Virus record (IMG/VR): IMGVR_UViG_2671180805_000011
DNA: 6,830 nucleotides
Strand: one strand, 5' to 3'
Origin: a virus
Lineage: Duplodnaviria > Heunggongvirae > Uroviricota > Caudoviricetes
A program made the translations under genes and the position numbers. Below the pieces are notes generated by a model, which worked only from the letters and a program-made list of their open reading frames with translations, searched no databases and was not told where the DNA came from. Below are positions 1-6,526 of the stretch, piece after piece; the stretch's first letter is position 1, and every line of letters starts with the position of its first letter.

Positions 1-33
1 AATGGTAGTGTCCGCTATTGCCAGTACACCTCA
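1..33 (+). mobile_element. Right terminal inverted repeat of an IS3-family element whose body lies upstream of the window
   Basis: Bases 1-35 are identical to 2758-2792, which immediately follow the transposase OrfB stop at 2747; ends in ...CACCTCA, the TG...CA style of IS3-family termini. Flanks diverge after position 35. Confidence 0.5.
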
Positions 34-160
34 GGGTATAAGGGGTTATGGCCACCGGACTACCAAACGGCTGCCAGCCCTCTTTCAGTTTATGTGTCAG
101 CTTTTCCGCAAGATCTGACGGCGGCGCCGCCCTGACAACATCATAGTGTTTAAATGCCAT
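34..160 (-). pseudogene. Small prophage ORF interrupted by the IS end (N-terminal 42 codons: MAFKHYDVVRAAPPSDLAEKLTHKLKEGWQPFGSPVAITPY...)
   Basis: Minus-strand ATG at 160-158 with GGTGGAAAG upstream; reading frame runs straight into the IS terminal repeat at 33. The GWQP-containing sequence resembles small DUF1737-type prophage proteins (from memory, not searched). Confidence 0.3.
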
Positions 161-353
161 GGTTCTTTCCACCATCTGAAAAATAATTCTTTAAAATACC
201 TGACATGTAATACAGAAAAAACACAAAACCATACCTTAAATAAAAACCTGATTATCAAGCAGATATGCATGGATAAACTACAAGACGAGATATAAACCAC
301 CCTGCATTTAAATAAACAATAAACAACATCAGAAAAATAATTCTGCTCTATGG

Positions 354-380
354 TTTACATTCAAAAATATCATTTATACT
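354..380 (+). promoter_or_regulatory. Candidate sigma70 promoter for the 421-756 ORF
   Basis: TTTACA (354-359), 15-nt spacer, TATACT (375-380); AAGGAA Shine-Dalgarno at 410-415 before ATG 421. Confidence 0.35.
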
Positions 381-420
381 TTTCAGAACATCACCAGCAA
401 GGCATAAACAAGGAAACTAA

Positions 421-756
421 ATGAAGTGGATTGTGATTGATACAGTTATCCAGCCATCATGCGGAATATCTTTTTCAGTCATATGGAGTAAAATAAAATT
501 AATAATCTGGTATCAATCGGATGCTTTCTTACCTCCTGAAAGTATATTTACACTGACTCACACAGGCATCATGCTCAATAACAAAGTGCTACCTGTAACC
601 ATTTACAACGTAGTACCATTCAATAAAACATTCTGGAATTCAATCAAAAATAGCCAGGAATGCCCTACAAATACAGATAACGTATTGAATGAATGCTTTA
701 ATAACCGTTGCACTCTGCAAATATGTCCTTATGGACTAAAACAACAAAGTCCATAA
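421..756 (+). CDS. Hypothetical Cys-rich small protein (111 aa), AT-rich, unknown function
   Basis: ORF track; good RBS and promoter-like hexamers upstream; strongly AT-rich relative to neighbouring phage genes; transcribed convergently to the phage late genes. No family recognised. Confidence 0.4.
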
Positions 757-779
757 GGAGTTTACTCACATCTGACAAA

Positions 780-810
780 ATCAATATAAACAGCCCCTCC
801 GGAGAGGGGC
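780..810 (-). terminator. Hairpin GCCCCTC-CGGA-GAGGGGC (793-810) with U-rich tail on the minus strand
   Basis: Perfect 7-bp GC-rich stem; minus-strand downstream sequence UGUUUAUAUUGAUUUU. An imperfect copy sits at 2981-2997 at the same boundary of the conserved segment. Confidence 0.35.
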
Positions 811-1036
811 TGGAGAGTGGCGCTATGTGCCATTGCATGGTGCCGGGTGCCTCCCGGTGAATTCAGTACCAGCACCTGAATCCGCGATTATCCCATATAC
901 CTACTCGCTGATTGCCCCTCCGCACAGGGGGATTCACCATGCCAGTTTCTTTTAACAAACTCCCCGCAAACCAGACAACAGTCAACCGCCTGAATTGTGA
1001 AGTATTTAAAAATTTCTCCCGCTAACTGATACCCGG

Positions 1037-1123
1037 CTAACAGTCTGGCGTTTTCTTTTTCAGCAACGGGAAAGCAACAACCACCACACCCGCCACCAGC
1101 ACACCGTCAGCCAGCACTGACAT
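1037..1123 (-). CDS. Candidate 28-aa hydrophobic micropeptide (MSVLADGVLVAGVVVVAFPLLKKKTPDC)
   Basis: My own translation of the minus strand; below the ORF-track size cutoff. Single predicted membrane-like helix followed by KKK; no convincing Shine-Dalgarno. Second identical copy at 5806-5892. Confidence 0.15.
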   Translation of the reverse strand: MSVLADGVLVAGVVVVAFPLLKKKTPDC

Positions 1124-1203
1124 TATCCGGCTGCTGCAATGCCATTCACAAAAACAGTAAGCAATCACTTTTTACCGTAACAGGTGATAATCCAGATATG
1201 TAT

Positions 1204-1557
1204 CTACCCCAGATGAGTAATCCGAAGTTCATCCATACCACAGGTCCTGGCTATTCTGTTGTACTCCTGAACAAGAGCAAATAATTCTGAATTAGCAACC
1301 ATGAACTCATCGCAAACCCTCTGTATAGCATCACTATTCAGAATAATAACGTCTCTTCCCGAAAGACGATCAGGAGTACAGAACAAAACTGTCAAACGGC
1401 TGAAGGCCTTTGCTCGTGCTGCATTGACTATATCAATACGCTGCCTAAGGATGAAACACCCCGACGCCTCATCAATATTCACTCTACCCACACCATATGA
1501 ATGATAAATATTTAATGCTGAAAAAACCATTAGACCGTATAACAAACACTCAATCAA
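1204..1557 (-). CDS. Hypothetical protein (117 aa from TTG; 108 aa from first ATG at 1530), unknown function
   Basis: ORF track; sits directly downstream of tRNA-Arg(UCU), the slot stxA occupies in Stx phages. Promoter-like TTGTCA-16-TAAGTA upstream on the minus strand (about 1590-1563). Weak RBS, AT-rich; an antisense 67-aa ORF (1301-1504) overlaps. Confidence 0.3.
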   Translation of the reverse strand: MIECLLYGLMVFSALNIYHSYGVGRVNIDEASGCFILRQRIDIVNAARAKAFSRLTVLFCTPDRLSGRDVIILNSDAIQRVCDEFMVANSELFALVQEYNRIARTCGMDELRITHLG

Positions 1558-1667
1558 TACTTAACAGAACTTTTATTTTTGACAAACATAAAATATTTTC
1601 AACAATATCCTGAGCCAGGTATATTTCAGTATAAGGCTCTGCCGGAAGGAATCTGGAAGAATGAATA

Positions 1668-1744
1668 TGGCGCGCTGTACTGGATTCGAACCAGTGACCG
1701 ATTGCTTAGAAGGCAATTGCTCTGTCCGGCTGAGCTAACAACGC
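1668..1744 (-). tRNA. argO: tRNA-Arg (anticodon UCU)
   Basis: Reverse complement folds as a cloverleaf: acceptor GCGTTGT/ACAGCGC (one G-U pair), anticodon loop CUUCUAA, T-loop TTCGAAT, 3' CCA. One SNP relative to the copy at 3235-3311. Confidence 0.8.
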
Positions 1745-1757
1745 TGAATACCGATAA

Positions 1758-1823
1758 TGGACCGCCATCGGGGACCCGCCCCCGCACCAACAACCCTGTT
1801 ATCGTGTCGTCTGCTCTTCCTGA
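1758..1823 (-). pseudogene. 3' portion of an argN-like tRNA variant, truncated at the IS junction
   Basis: Shares the 3' acceptor end TGGACCGCCATCGGGGAC with argN (3325-3342) and matches 6527-6592 of the variant in module C; identity with module C stops at 1823/1824 where IS orfA sequence begins. Confidence 0.45.
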
Positions 1824-2790
1824 ACTTGAGCGAGATATATTAAAAAAAGCAACAGCGTATTTTGCACAGGAGTCGCTGAAAAATACGCGTTAATCGAACA
1901 ATGGCGACAACAATTTCCCATTGAAGCGATGTGTCAGGTATTTGGTGTATCCAGGAGCGGTTATTACAACTGGGTACAGCATGAACCCTCAGACAGAAAA
2001 CAAAGTGATGAGCGGCTAAAACTGGAGATTAAGGTGGCACATATCCGCACTCGCGAAACATATGGAACCCGGCGGCTCCAGACGGAGCTGGCAGAGAATG
2101 GCATCATCGTTGGTCGTGACCGACTGGCACGTCTTCGTAAGGAGCTAAGGCTACGCTGTAAGCAGAAACGCAAGTTCAGAGCGACTACGAACTCGAACCA
2201 CAATCTGCCAGTTGCGCCAAATCTGCTGAACCAGACGTTCGCTCCTACAGCACCAAATCAGGTCTGGGTGGCGGACCTGACGTATGTTGCCACACAGGAG
2301 GGATGGTTGTACCTCGCTGGCATCAAAGATGTTTATACGTGCGAAATTGTCGGCTACGCCATGGGAGAGCGCATGACAAAAGAGCTGACAGGTAAAGCCC
2401 TGTTTATGGCGCTCAGGAGCCAGCGCCCACCTGCCGGGCTAATCCACCACTCTGATCGAGGTTCACAGTACTGCGCATACGATTACCGGGTCATACAGGA
2501 GCAGTCTGGTCTGAAAACATCAATGTCGCGTAAAGGTAACTGTTACGACAACGCTCCGATGGAAAGCTTCTGGGGAACGCTGAAAAATGAGAGCCTGAGC
2601 CACTATCGTTTTAATAACCGGGATGAAGCCATCTCAGTAATACGGGAATACATTGAGATTTTCTACAATCGTCAGCGTCGTCACTCTCGTCTGGGGAATA
2701 TCTCCCCGGCAGCCTTCAGGGAAAAATATCATCAGATGGCTGCTTAAAAAAAGAACAAATGGTAGTGTCCGCTATTGCCAGTACACCTCA
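1824..2790 (+). mobile_element. 5'-truncated IS3-family insertion sequence (lacks left inverted repeat and most of orfA)
   Basis: Retains orfA C-terminus (...ELERDILKKATAYFAQESLKNTR), slippery run A-AAA-AAA at 1842-1848 for -1 frameshifting, complete OrfB and the right terminal repeat 2758-2790. Only ~967 bp versus ~1.2-1.3 kb for intact family members. Confidence 0.8.
1929..2747 (+). CDS. IS3-family transposase OrfB (DDE integrase catalytic domain)
   Basis: 272-aa ORF with the DDE signature contexts WVADLTY, HSDRGSQY and NAPMESFWGTLKNE; the -1 frame is open from 1830 (KKSNSVFCTGVAEKYALIEQWRQQFPIEAM...), as expected for an OrfAB fusion. Confidence 0.9.
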   Translation: MCQVFGVSRSGYYNWVQHEPSDRKQSDERLKLEIKVAHIRTRETYGTRRLQTELAENGIIVGRDRLARLRKELRLRCKQKRKFRATTNSNHNLPVAPNLLNQTFAPTAPNQVWVADLTYVATQEGWLYLAGIKDVYTCEIVGYAMGERMTKELTGKALFMALRSQRPPAGLIHHSDRGSQYCAYDYRVIQEQSGLKTSMSRKGNCYDNAPMESFWGTLKNESLSHYRFNNRDEAISVIREYIEIFYNRQRRHSRLGNISPAAFREKYHQMAA

Positions 2791-2996
2791 GGATAGCGGT
2801 CATGTGATGCCGGTTTCCCGGTAACTCAGCACCGGTATCTGAGTCAACGTTTTCTCTACTGGGTCATTTCCGATACGCCCTGCCTGCTGACAGGCTTTCA
2901 TCACATCTGAAAATATAGCACCCTGACTGATACTGTAGTACCTAAGGTTCCAGAAACTGTGATGTATCCGGCACAGAAAAGCCCCTCCGGAGAGGG

Positions 2997-3200
2997 CTGG
3001 AGAGTGGCGCTATGTGCCATTGCATGATGCCGGGTGCCTCCCGGTGAATTCAGTACCAGCACCTGAATCCGCGATTATCCCATATACCTACTCGCTGATT
3101 GCCCCTCCGCACAGGGGGATTCACCATGCCAGTTTCTTTTAACAAACTCCCCGCAAAACAGACAACTGTCAACCGTCTGAATTGTGAGACATTTAAAAAA
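2997..3200. repeat. Third, slightly diverged copy of the conserved ~200-bp segment
   Basis: Aligns with 807-1012 and 5576-5781 with a handful of substitutions (for example catgatgcc versus catggtgcc). Here it directly follows the argO terminator with no insert. Confidence 0.85.
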
Positions 3201-3234: not shown

Positions 3235-3311
3235 TGGCGCGTTGTACTGGATTCGAACCAGTGACCGATTGCTTAGAAGGCAATTGCTCTGTCCGGCTGA
3301 GCTAACAACGC
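3235..3311 (-). tRNA. argO: tRNA-Arg (anticodon UCU)
   Basis: 77 nt; perfect acceptor GCGTTGT/ACAACGC, anticodon loop CUUCUAA, T-loop TTCGAAT, CCA encoded. Confidence 0.85.
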
Positions 3312-3324
3312 ATGATGCAGATAA

Positions 3325-3401
3325 TGGACCGCCATCGGGGACTTGAACCCCGCGCAGCCAGCTTCGAAGGCTGGCGCTCTTTCCTGATGAGCTAATGGCG
3401 G
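3325..3401 (-). tRNA. argN: tRNA-Arg (anticodon UCG)
   Basis: 77 nt; acceptor CCGCCAT/ATGGCGG, D-arm GCTC/GAGC, anticodon loop CUUCGAA, T-arm CGGGG-TTCAAGT-CCCCG, CCA encoded. Confidence 0.85.
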
Positions 3402-3408
3402 TATGTGA

Positions 3409-3484
3409 TGGTGGCCCTTGCTGGATTTGAACCAGCGACCTGGCGATTATGAGTCGCTCGCTCTCACCACTGAGCTAAAGGGCC
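3409..3484 (-). tRNA. ileZ: tRNA-Ile2 type (anticodon CAU, presumably lysidine-modified)
   Basis: 76 nt cloverleaf with CCA; closely resembles the E. coli ileX sequence as I recall it. Anticodon CAU alone cannot exclude tRNA-Met. Confidence 0.75.
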
Positions 3485-3524: not shown

Positions 3525-4583
3525 TCATCCGTTCTGGCTGACTAAATCCTGTACTTCCCGAACCGTCTGCTCAAAACGTTCAGTCTCCAGCTCAACGCCA
3601 ATTGCACGACGCCCGAGCGCCAGTGCCGCTTTCACTGTCGAACCCAACCCCATGAAAAAATCTGCAATCAGGTCACCCGGACGACTGCTAGCGCTGATTA
3701 TCTGCTGCAGCATTTCTGCCGGTTTTTCGCACGGATGTTTCCCGGGATAGAACTGCACCGGTTTATGCGTCCACACATCGGTATACGGCACCTGCACCGT
3801 CACGCCAAAATACCGCCGCAGATGTTTATATTCACTCAGCAGCTCCGCATACTGCCGGTTCAGTGAGGTATACGTATCCACCAGCTGGTGGTGGAGCTTT
3901 TCCAGTTCACCACGCCGATGCTTCTCTTCTGCCACCCGGGCAAACAGCGCCTGTAATTTCAGATAATCGCTTTCATTCGGCAACTGCCACTGACCGGCAC
4001 TGAACCAGTGCGACACCATGTTTTTCTTTCCTGTGGCATCTGCAATCTGTTTTGCCGTTATCCCCAGGGCAGCTCGCGCATCACGAAAGTAAGAAATCAG
4101 CGGGGCCATCACATGCTGTTTCAGTGCACTGCCCTTCGCCGCATACCCGGCATCTTTCGGACGATACGGCCCCTGATAATGTTCCGCGAACAGAATGCGC
4201 TCTGTGGCGGGGAAATACGCCCGCAGGCTTTCCTTGTTGCATCCGTTCCAGCGTCCGGACGGCTTCGCCCAGATAATATGGTTCAGCACACTGAAGCGTT
4301 CACGCATCATGATTTCGATATCAGATGCCAGGCGATGACCACAGAACAGGTAAAGACTTCCGGCAGGTTTCAGCACCCGCCAGAACTGCGCCAGACACTG
4401 GTCCAGCCACTTCAGGTAATCATCGTCGCCCTTCCACTGGTTATCCCAGCCCTCAGGCTTCACTTTAAAGTACGGCGGGTCCGTGACTATCAGGTCAACA
4501 GAATTTTCGGGTAACGACCGGATAAATTCCAGGCAGTCGGCGTTGATTAACTCACAACTGGATATTTTTACAGTATTAAGCAT
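3525..4583 (-). CDS. DNA methyltransferase (N6-adenine or N4-cytosine, beta-class motif order)
   Basis: 352-aa ORF; N-terminal catalytic motif IV ...SVDLIVTDPPY... and C-terminal AdoMet motif I DFFMGLGS. No adjacent restriction endonuclease, so likely an orphan prophage methylase. Confidence 0.85.
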   Translation of the reverse strand: MLNTVKISSCELINADCLEFIRSLPENSVDLIVTDPPYFKVKPEGWDNQWKGDDDYLKWLDQCLAQFWRVLKPAGSLYLFCGHRLASDIEIMMRERFSVLNHIIWAKPSGRWNGCNKESLRAYFPATERILFAEHYQGPYRPKDAGYAAKGSALKQHVMAPLISYFRDARAALGITAKQIADATGKKNMVSHWFSAGQWQLPNESDYLKLQALFARVAEEKHRRGELEKLHHQLVDTYTSLNRQYAELLSEYKHLRRYFGVTVQVPYTDVWTHKPVQFYPGKHPCEKPAEMLQQIISASSRPGDLIADFFMGLGSTVKAALALGRRAIGVELETERFEQTVREVQDLVSQNG

Positions 4584-4723: not shown

Positions 4724-4747
4724 AAAAAAGCCTTCACTGCGGAAGGC
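4724..4747 (-). terminator. Hairpin plus U-tract overlapping the stop codon of the small HTH gene
   Basis: Minus strand GCCUUC-CGCAGU-GAAGGC followed by UUUUUUAUUU. Confidence 0.45.
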
Positions 4748-4931
4748 GTCTGTAACAACCGAACTGATAGTCTGCCAGACCCGCCATAACCAGCTGGGTC
4801 AGTATTAACTGGCAGCGTTCGCGTGAAAGGTAAGTATTCTGCGCTATCTCCCCGACTGTCGCCGGTTCGGTAACGCTTAATTCATTAAACACCACTCTGG
4901 CGGTTTCTGTCATATCCTGCTGTTTTAGCAT
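4734..4931 (-). CDS. Small predicted helix-turn-helix DNA-binding protein (65 aa)
   Basis: ORF track; AAGGAAAAG Shine-Dalgarno before ATG; segment VGEIAQNTYLSRERCQLILTQLVMAGL looks like a helix-turn-helix; immediately upstream of the methylase in the same orientation. Confidence 0.5.
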   Translation of the reverse strand: MLKQQDMTETARVVFNELSVTEPATVGEIAQNTYLSRERCQLILTQLVMAGLADYQFGCYRRLPQ

Positions 4932-5155: not shown

Positions 5156-5644
5156 TTACCTAGTTACCTTTTTTAACTGCCGCTCAGCCCATGCTTCTTC
5201 AATATCAAACCGGGTCACCAGCGCATCATAAAATTTCTTAACTGTTTTTTCCCATGACGCGCGTGTTATCTGGTTTGTCACCTCGCATATAGCATTAAAT
5301 GCCTCCGTTGATGGTAGTCTTTCATAGCCACGACCACCACAACGCTGGCAGTCTCTGATAACAGGCATACCACGTTTTACCGACTCTTCACGATGAATGG
5401 CGACACCACGCCCACGGCAATCCTTACAGGCGGTGGAAACCTCACCCTTTCCGCCACACTCCGGACAGGCAACTTTTACCACCTCCCTGACTTTTTTCCA
5501 TTCTTCCCAGTAAGACGGATACACACCTTTCGTACACTTTGCCCATACCGGCGGCTTACCATCCGGATACTGGAAGGGCTGGAGAGTGGCGCTATGTGCC
5601 ATTGCATGGTGCCGGGTGCCTCCCGGTGAATTCAGTACCAGCAC
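5156..5644 (-). CDS. Q: Lambda-family late antiterminator Q, probably 5'-chimeric or truncated
   Basis: CxxC motifs (CPECGGKG, CKDCRGRG, CQRCGGRG) and C-terminus ...WEKTVKKFYDALV...KVTR match my recollection of lambda Q (...CRDCHGTGR...GRCKGVGY...WSRTVKPLYDALV...AVTR). The track ORF starts at GTG 5644; first ATG is 5603. Codons upstream of 5577 lie in the repeated conserved segment. Confidence 0.7.
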   Translation of the reverse strand: MLVLNSPGGTRHHAMAHSATLQPFQYPDGKPPVWAKCTKGVYPSYWEEWKKVREVVKVACPECGGKGEVSTACKDCRGRGVAIHREESVKRGMPVIRDCQRCGGRGYERLPSTEAFNAICEVTNQITRASWEKTVKKFYDALVTRFDIEEAWAERQLKKVTR

Positions 5645-5972
5645 CTGAATCCGCGATTATCCCATATACCTACTCGCTGATTGCCCCTCCGCACAGGGGG
5701 ATTCACCATGCCAGTTTCTTTTAACAAACTCCCCGCAAACCAGACAACAGTCAACCGCCTGAATTGTGAAGTATTTAAAAATTTCTCCCGCTAACTGATA
5801 CCCGGCTAACAGTCTGGCGTTTTCTTTTTCAGCAACGGGAAAGCAACAACCACCACACCCGCCACCAGCACACCGTCAGCCAGCACTGACATTATCCGGC
5901 TGCTGCAATGCCATTCACAAAAACAGTAAGCAATCACTTTTTACCGTAACAGGTGATAATCCAGATATGTAT

Positions 5973-6326
5973 CTACCCCAGATGAGTAATCCGAAGTTCA
6001 TCCATACCACAGGTCCTGGCTATTCTGTTGTACTCCTGAACAAGAGCAAATAATTCTGAATTAGCAACCATGAACTCATCGCAAACCCTCTGTATAGCAT
6101 CACTATTCAGAATAATAACGTCTCTTCCCGAAAGACGATCAGGAGTACAGAACAAAACTGTCAAACGGCTGAAGGCCTTTGCTCGTGCTGCATTGACTAT
6201 ATCAATACGCTGCCTAAGGATGAAACACCCCGACGCCTCATCAATATTCACTCTACCCACACCATATGAATGATAAATATTTAATGCTGAAAAAACCATT
6301 AGACCGTATAACAAACACTCAATCAA
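5973..6326 (-). CDS. Hypothetical protein, second identical copy of the 1204-1557 ORF
   Basis: ORF-track protein identical to the 1204-1557 product. Confidence 0.3.
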   Translation of the reverse strand: MIECLLYGLMVFSALNIYHSYGVGRVNIDEASGCFILRQRIDIVNAARAKAFSRLTVLFCTPDRLSGRDVIILNSDAIQRVCDEFMVANSELFALVQEYNRIARTCGMDELRITHLG

Positions 6327-6436
6327 TACTTAACAGAACTTTTATTTTTGACAAACATAAAATATTTTCAACAATATCCTGAGCCAGGTATATTTCAGTA
6401 TAAGGCTCTGCCGGAAGGAATCTGGAAGAATGAATA

Positions 6437-6513
6437 TGGCGCGCTGTACTGGATTCGAACCAGTGACCGATTGCTTAGAAGGCAATTGCTCTGTCCGGCT
6501 GAGCTAACAACGC
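6437..6513 (-). tRNA. argO: tRNA-Arg (anticodon UCU), identical to the 1668-1744 copy
   Basis: Same sequence as 1668-1744 at offset 4769. Confidence 0.8.
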
Positions 6514-6526
6514 TGAATACCGATAA

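Follow-up and report, generated by a model that had tools for sequence, protein, structure and literature searches.

The locus

The window, a 6,830-nt stretch of viral DNA (Caudoviricetes; IMG/VR record IMGVR_UViG_2671180805_000011), carries near its left end an AT-rich and cysteine-rich open reading frame that lies between the 5′ part of a DUF1737 gene and a gene for a small RNA of the STnc100 family (Table 1). This open reading frame is iraL, a prophage-borne gene that has already been characterised and that occupies its usual prophage slot here. The prophage around iraL is decayed by IS600 insertion and rearrangement; the cassette itself is intact.

Table 1. Features of the 6,830-nt window, ordered approximately by position.
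Feature	Position	Strand	Remarks
IS600 sequences	1-33; 1825-2790		Terminal end (1-33); 5′-truncated copy abutting the tRNA-Arg region (1825-2790); from alignment
DUF1737 gene, 5′ part	34-160	-	Pfam PF08410, E = 9.5e-16; first lysis-side late gene
AT-rich iraL cassette (putative moron)	161-791		631 bp; runs from the DUF1737 start codon to the STnc100 terminator
Direct repeat CAnCATCnGAAAAATAATTCT, 21 nt, two copies	170-190; 324-344	+	From a repeat finder; upstream of iraL
iraL promoter and 5′ UTR	354-420	+	-10 TATACT 375-380; start A388; Shine-Dalgarno AGGA 411-414
Putative -35 TTTACA	354-359	+	15-nt spacer to TATACT; assignment made in this analysis
iraL coding sequence, predicted RssB anti-adaptor of the IraM family	421-756	+	ATG 421; TAA 754-756; 111 aa
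C-terminal tail, aa 79-111	655-753	+	Four-cysteine motif C81-x10-C92-x4-C97-x4-C102-P-Y-G; cysteine codons 661-726
STnc100-family prophage sRNA gene	782-971	-	Tail-to-tail with iraL; Rfam RF02076
Intrinsic terminator of STnc100	791-812	-	G+C-rich hairpin and U-run; 35 nt past the iraL stop codon
Further STnc100 copies	2969-3158; 5541-5740	-	124 and 104 bits (first copy 132)
Duplication, ~1 kb	804-1823; 5573-6592		About 99.8% identity
DUF3927 ORF, duplicated	1037-1168; 5806-5937	-	43 aa
117-aa ORF, duplicated	1204-1557; 5973-6326	-	No Pfam or NCBIfam family match
Six phage-type tRNAs	1668-1744; 3235-3311; 3325-3401; 3409-3484; 6437-6513; 6614-6689	-	Anticodons Arg-UCU (three), Arg-UCG (one), CAU (two)
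N6/N4 DNA methyltransferase gene	3525-4583	-	352 aa; Pfam N6_N4_Mtase, E = 8e-42
Winged-helix ORF	4734-4931	-	65 aa; TrmB-like (weak); precedes the methyltransferase gene
Chimeric ORF with Q fragment	5156-5644	-	162 aa; junction 5573/5574; C-terminal part matches Pfam Antiterm, E = 1.5e-31

Alignment to CFT073 and E. coli 042 stops at 33/34, where the IS600 end cuts the DUF1737 gene; intact relatives continue to the holin, lysozyme and Rz genes. An exact search for the IS600/DUF1737 junction among species-representative genomes gave no match. A 35-nt IS600 end recurs at 2758-2792. The repeat of window positions 1-38 at 2758-2795 was considered as a second DUF1737 copy or 'empty site' and rejected, as alignment shows it to be the IS600 terminal repeat.

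The window has the appearance of two late regions of lambdoid type that have recombined. The duplicated segment holds most of STnc100, the DUF3927 and 117-aa ORFs and tRNA-Arg(UCU), with the two ORFs placed between the tRNAs and STnc100. Of the three STnc100 copies, the first is the only one to adjoin iraL. The third is without the terminator stem, which was lost at the junction where the truncated Q gene is now fused, and the first 23 or so residues of the resulting chimeric ORF are read from STnc100-derived sequence. The two tRNAs with a CAU anticodon are called tRNA-Met by ARAGORN and tRNA-Ile in the annotation of relatives.

Identity and distribution of iraL

On the NCBIfam model NF007393 (IraM) the 111-aa protein scores 162 bits, above the cut-off of 121; its residues 1-110 align to profile positions 1-113 of 114. 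It shares 61% identity with K-12 IraM over 107 aligned amino acids. Its closest characterised counterpart is IraL of CFT073 (WP_000871291.1), with which it agrees at 110 of 111 residues; the sole change is a serine at position 74, which is leucine in CFT073. The two coding sequences differ at 2 of 336 nt. We assigned a gene to the iraL subtype where nucleotide identity to CFT073 iraL was at least 95% and the iraL promoter and start-site region was conserved. The window gene belongs to this subtype, whereas K-12 iraM reaches only 70% nucleotide identity, and that within the coding sequence alone.

The gene is widespread. The exact window protein is the common Shigella allele, named IraM, found in a cluster of 1045 members and on approximately 1000 contigs, and window positions 1-1823 are 100% identical to several Shigella sonnei chromosomes. 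Of 5426 complete E. coli genomes, 1446 carry a 511-bp region around the ORF at 90-100% identity, always annotated as IraM, and the same region occurs in four deposited phage records. A 2014 study (PMC4045071) found iraL more often in Shigella and in uropathogenic and prostatitis isolates than in commensals, and less often in EHEC/STEC isolates. What began as a cysteine-rich ORF of no assigned role thereby becomes a gene with a published function, promoter and phenotype.

Promoter and upstream region

The initial annotation had proposed that this ORF has a promoter of its own with a near-consensus -10 element, and published mapping agrees. The start of the iraL mRNA was determined by 5′-RACE in CFT073 as ACATCACCAGCAAGGCATAAACAAGGAAACCA (Hryckowian et al. 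2014, PMC4045071). This sequence corresponds to window positions 388-419 with one mismatch, at 418, so that the start site falls seven bases past TATACT. Over 288-420, the region that those authors used as the 'native promoter', the window differs from CFT073 at 387 and 418 only, and the -35 and -10 regions are the same in both. Immediately upstream of the gene, an AAGGAAA motif at 410-416 places AGGA six bases 5′ of the ATG.

A generic sigma-70 scan missed the TATACT promoter because the best -35 element, TTTACA, lies just 15 nt away, and the hits that the scan did return were at chance (3 found against 3.3 expected). Sequence pattern alone is thus insufficient to establish a promoter here, and it is the mapped transcript of CFT073 that identifies it.

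Two conditions are linked in later papers to higher iraL expression or IraL level: a fur mutation in CFT073, and a temperature shift from 23 to 37 °C. Scanning 161-420 for a Fur box gave a best score of 11 of 19 matches, no better than shuffled sequence; consequently, the rise in the fur mutant is not accounted for by an obvious Fur site. H-NS silences iraM, which agrees with the suggestion in the initial annotation that H-NS binding be considered for this AT-rich region.

Further upstream, the two copies of CAnCATCnGAAAAATAATTCT are the same at 19 of 21 positions, a level reached by none of 200 dinucleotide shuffles of 161-420. The copy at 170-190 lies at the cassette's left edge, and that at 324-344 covers -64 to -44 relative to the transcription start. 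The repeat may be a site for a regulator or the scar of a recombination event.

The cassette as a moron

The composition of the cassette sets it apart from its surroundings. GC content is 34.5% in the ORF, 29.6% in the upstream region (161-420) and 32.2% over the block 161-790, against 52.8% in the DUF1737 fragment, 55.3% in STnc100 and 49.2% in the rest of the window. The earlier description of a 111-aa frame with a Shine-Dalgarno sequence and an AT bias relative to its neighbours therefore stands in all of its parts: frame, AGGA and GC values. Further, O157:H7 prophages retain the DUF1737/esterase start codon on one side and the STnc100 stem on the other, and between the two they carry approximately 220 nt of unrelated sequence in place of the 631-bp AT-rich block.

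In E. coli 042, CFT073 and phage vB_EcoS-640R1, the minus-strand order is Q, tRNAs, DUF3927, DUF1737, holin, lysozyme and Rz. Within this Q-to-Rz stretch of intact relatives, iraL is the only plus-strand gene, and it lies between DUF3927 and DUF1737. This gene order indicates that iraL is convergent with the late operon, as the initial annotation had read from the window alone. The same arrangement is found in a deposited phage genome.

DNA similarity between iraL and K-12 iraM is restricted to 419-740. It ends with the coding sequence, from which it follows that the control regions of the two genes are unrelated. Together, the flank comparison, the composition, the promoter and the divergence from iraM outside the coding sequence support the reading of iraL as a discrete, self-promoted phage moron. 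The earlier proposal of an independently expressed moron of the lysogenic-conversion type fits this picture well, given a sigma-70 promoter of its own, a discrete cassette and the predicted stabilisation of RpoS in the lysogen.

STnc100 and the hairpin downstream of iraL

The small RNA gene that meets iraL tail-to-tail matches Rfam model RF02076 with 132.4 bits (gathering score 47) over model positions 1-206. The STnc100/PasD family of sRNAs is known from the literature. At its iraL-proximal end is a stem of 9 bp, 7 of them G-C pairs, that is followed on the minus strand by UUUAUAUUGAUUUUG. This hairpin has a predicted fold energy of -21.7 kcal/mol (z -3.3), a stability matched by no shuffle out of 200. 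The hairpin aligns to the 3′-terminal stem-loop of the STnc100 model, which identifies it as the terminator of the sRNA itself. It had previously been read as a hairpin that would stop minus-strand read-through. The direction was right, in that the U-run is on the minus strand; the role was too narrow, since the hairpin is not merely a barrier and belongs to STnc100. Late transcription modified by Q would be expected to pass through this terminator by lambdoid antitermination.

On the plus strand, the stem is followed by GAGAGUGG, which has no U-run, and this is the sole hairpin downstream of iraL. As no plus-strand terminator for iraL is evident, iraL mRNA may run on antisense into STnc100. 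We speculate that prophage induction and RpoS control could be coupled through transcriptional interference, with iraL mRNA possibly antisense to STnc100 and Q-driven late transcription antisense to iraL.

Action on RssB and RpoS

We consider it very probable that iraL is a prophage moron for a small cytoplasmic RssB anti-adaptor that stabilises RpoS in growing cells. This function is assigned to the window gene because its protein is identical at 110 of 111 residues to the characterised IraL of CFT073, and because data from S. sonnei point the same way. [quoted passage not shown]

The sequence of events proposed for the lysogen is as follows. During exponential growth, transcription of iraL would start at its own sigma-70 promoter and would not depend on the late promoter of the phage. 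IraL would then bind RssB, the response-regulator-like adaptor, and RssB held in this way would be unable to pass RpoS (sigma S) to the ClpXP protease. RpoS would be stabilised as a result, and the general stress regulon raised in growing cells. On this account, iraL would be a clear case in which a gene brought in by a phage resets a core regulator of its host, keeping RpoS high during growth.

The structural basis of this proposal comes from K-12 IraM. In the IraM-RssB crystal structure (8TWD), a PmrD-like beta-barrel packs against the receiver domain of RssB at its alpha4-beta5-alpha5 face, and IraM also contacts the linker and C-terminal domain of RssB, excluding sigma S (PMC10844676). The window protein matches chain A of 8TWD in a phmmer search with E = 6e-31. 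An AF2 model, built on an alignment of 34 family representatives from an exhaustive profile search, has a mean pLDDT of 86.4 and superposes on 8TWD_A with a TM score of 0.90 and an rmsd of 1.2 Å over 78 columns. With 16 close homologues the pLDDT had been 59.9; the deeper alignment fixed the core and left the tail at moderate confidence. Remote-homology search and structure prediction, both recommended in the initial annotation, have thus yielded the IraM family (162 bits) and a PmrD-like fold (TM 0.90 to IraM). A signal peptide or membrane role was also considered and set aside, the hydrophobic N-terminus corresponding to beta-barrel strands in the solved IraM structure.

For IraM, 15 residues are given as contacts with RssB (clusters I-III and P66), and 11 of these are identical in the window protein: I4, I6, W22, K26, I42, C14, F18, W30, I61, Y62 and P66. 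The remaining four are conservative replacements (T13S, L75I, H63N and I64V). The IraM-RssB structure and this conservation of contacts suggest that residues 1-78 of IraL would form a PmrD-like beta-barrel that docks on the receiver domain of RssB at the alpha4-beta5-alpha5 face, with RpoS excluded. [quoted passage not shown]

The serine at position 74 replaces the leucine of both CFT073 and K-12 and lies in an alpha-helix, beside contact residue 75. This bears on whether the gene could be intact yet silent or inactive in this Shigella background, and so a decaying passenger instead of a working regulator. The causes proposed for such a loss are L74S, silencing of the AT-rich cassette and the nearby IS600-driven rearrangements. 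The cassette has a GC content of 32%, and the prophage is clearly degraded, with DUF1737 cut at 33/34 by an IS600 end, a partial IS600 at 1825-2790 and a truncated Q. We nevertheless regard inactivity as improbable. No damage is seen in the promoter, 5′ UTR or ORF, all nearly identical to those of CFT073, and S74 is the common Shigella allele, carried by about 1000 contigs. Deletion of iraL lowered sigma S in S. sonnei (PMC4045071), and window positions 1-1823 are identical to S. sonnei chromosomes.

The fold raises a different concern, namely that the protein might be a PmrD-like connector acting on another response regulator, such as PmrA, and not on RssB. Foldseek aligns the model to PmrD structure 4HN7 with a TM score of 0.73, and homologues of the window protein bear the precomputed Pfam label PF11183 (PmrD). 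The likeness is one of fold only: identity to PmrD is only 14-20%, no Pfam PmrD match was obtained at E <= 0.1 and the NCBIfam PmrD model was not matched by the window protein. NCBIfam instead assigns the protein to IraM, and just 1 of 34 relatives touches the PmrD model, weakly (E = 0.003). With RssB binding demonstrated experimentally for an IraL that is identical at 110 of 111 residues (PMC4045071), a PmrA-type target is very unlikely indeed, and action on RssB remains by far the preferred reading. A scan of the window protein and 34 relatives against Pfam gave no meaningful match, and it was NCBIfam that resolved the family. The PF11183 label on homologues differs from this local Pfam-A result, a discrepancy that is probably due to a difference in Pfam version or threshold.

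The coding status of the frame is secure. Relative to K-12 iraM, dN is 0.26 and dS 1.77 (saturated), giving a dN/dS of 0.146, and the frame is conserved. The initial annotation had held that lack of conservation of the reading frame would overturn its proposal, and this dN/dS speaks to the contrary. A chance frame in an AT-rich spacer, with the sRNA and its terminator as the sole functional elements, might have been entertained because some stop codons are scarce in AT-rich DNA and the ORF has no Pfam match, but it is already refuted by the conservation data, with synonymous change saturated against iraM at a dN/dS of 0.146, and by 97 family representatives, a solved homologue structure and published genetics.

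The C-terminal cysteine tail

The crystallised IraM fragment comprises residues 1-78. The tail beyond it was removed and was described as less conserved and flexible (PMC10844676). Its conservation was assessed here in an alignment of 34 full-length family representatives, which are 20-62% identical to the window protein and all match NCBIfam IraM; the exhaustive profile search had returned 97 representatives at E <= 0.001. Only M1, W72, C81, C97 and C102 are invariant among the 34. C92 and P103 are each present in 33 of them, and all four cysteines occur together in 33. Contrary to the description in the structure paper, conservation across the wider IraM family is strongest at the four-cysteine motif. 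By comparison, C14, through which K-12 IraM contacts RssB, lacks conservation, being threonine in 27 of the 34.

The family motif was defined as C-P-x-C-x-C-x4-C-P-Y/F-G, and the window protein has its cysteines at C81, C92, C97 and C102. The initial annotation had noted that the cysteines form no recognisable motif. The tail is under-described, but its cysteines are a signature shared by the IraM family, to which the protein belongs as IraL. Three anti-adaptor papers say nothing of cysteines, zinc or metals in IraM. AF2 confidence over the tail is at pLDDT 57-74.

We speculate that C81, C92, C97 and C102 may make up a small module, binding zinc or responding to redox state, on which the stability or activity of IraL and IraM depends. 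If true, the anti-adaptor would be under a post-translational control not described before. Taken jointly, the proposals that the cysteines form a zinc or redox module, or that iraL, STnc100 and the late operon are coupled by antisense transcription, are tentative, and we would sooner doubt them than rely on them.

Comparison with known systems

The nearest known system is IraL of uropathogenic E. coli CFT073 (ycgW, c1429), which is located in the phi-potB prophage. The two loci have the same promoter, start site and 5′ UTR, with 2 differences over 288-420, and the same neighbours, with DUF1737 on one side and STnc100, DUF3927 and tRNAs on the other. They differ at residue 74, which is leucine in CFT073 and serine in the window, and in the state of the prophage, as the DUF1737 gene of the window is cut by IS600 and its prophage is rearranged.

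IraM of K-12 (ycgW, b1160), encoded beside the e14 element, resembles the window IraL in family, length class and possession of the four C-terminal cysteines. Its genomic context is different. The literature further separates the two in behaviour: Mg2+ starvation induces IraM, and both domains of RssB are in contact with it, whereas IraL acts in log phase and contacts the N-terminal domain only. RssC is the Salmonella member of the IraM/IraL family, with about 49% identity to iraL by ClustalW (PMC4045071).

A more distant likeness is to PmrD, which protects phospho-PmrA. PmrD shares the fold of a beta-barrel, hairpin and helix (TM 0.70-0.73; see PMC10844676 on the fold), but it differs from IraL in sequence (14-20% identity), in target and in length (about 85 aa), and is without the four-cysteine tail.

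As a genetic element, iraL is best compared with the classical lambdoid morons stx, bor and lom. Like these, it has an autonomous promoter and a deviant composition, lies between modules of the late region, and is present or absent among otherwise collinear prophages. Unlike classical late-region morons, it is oriented against late transcription, and would consequently not be co-expressed with the late operon. The positions of stx2 and iraL mirror each other around the same small RNA gene: stx2 lies just upstream of STnc100, and iraL just downstream.
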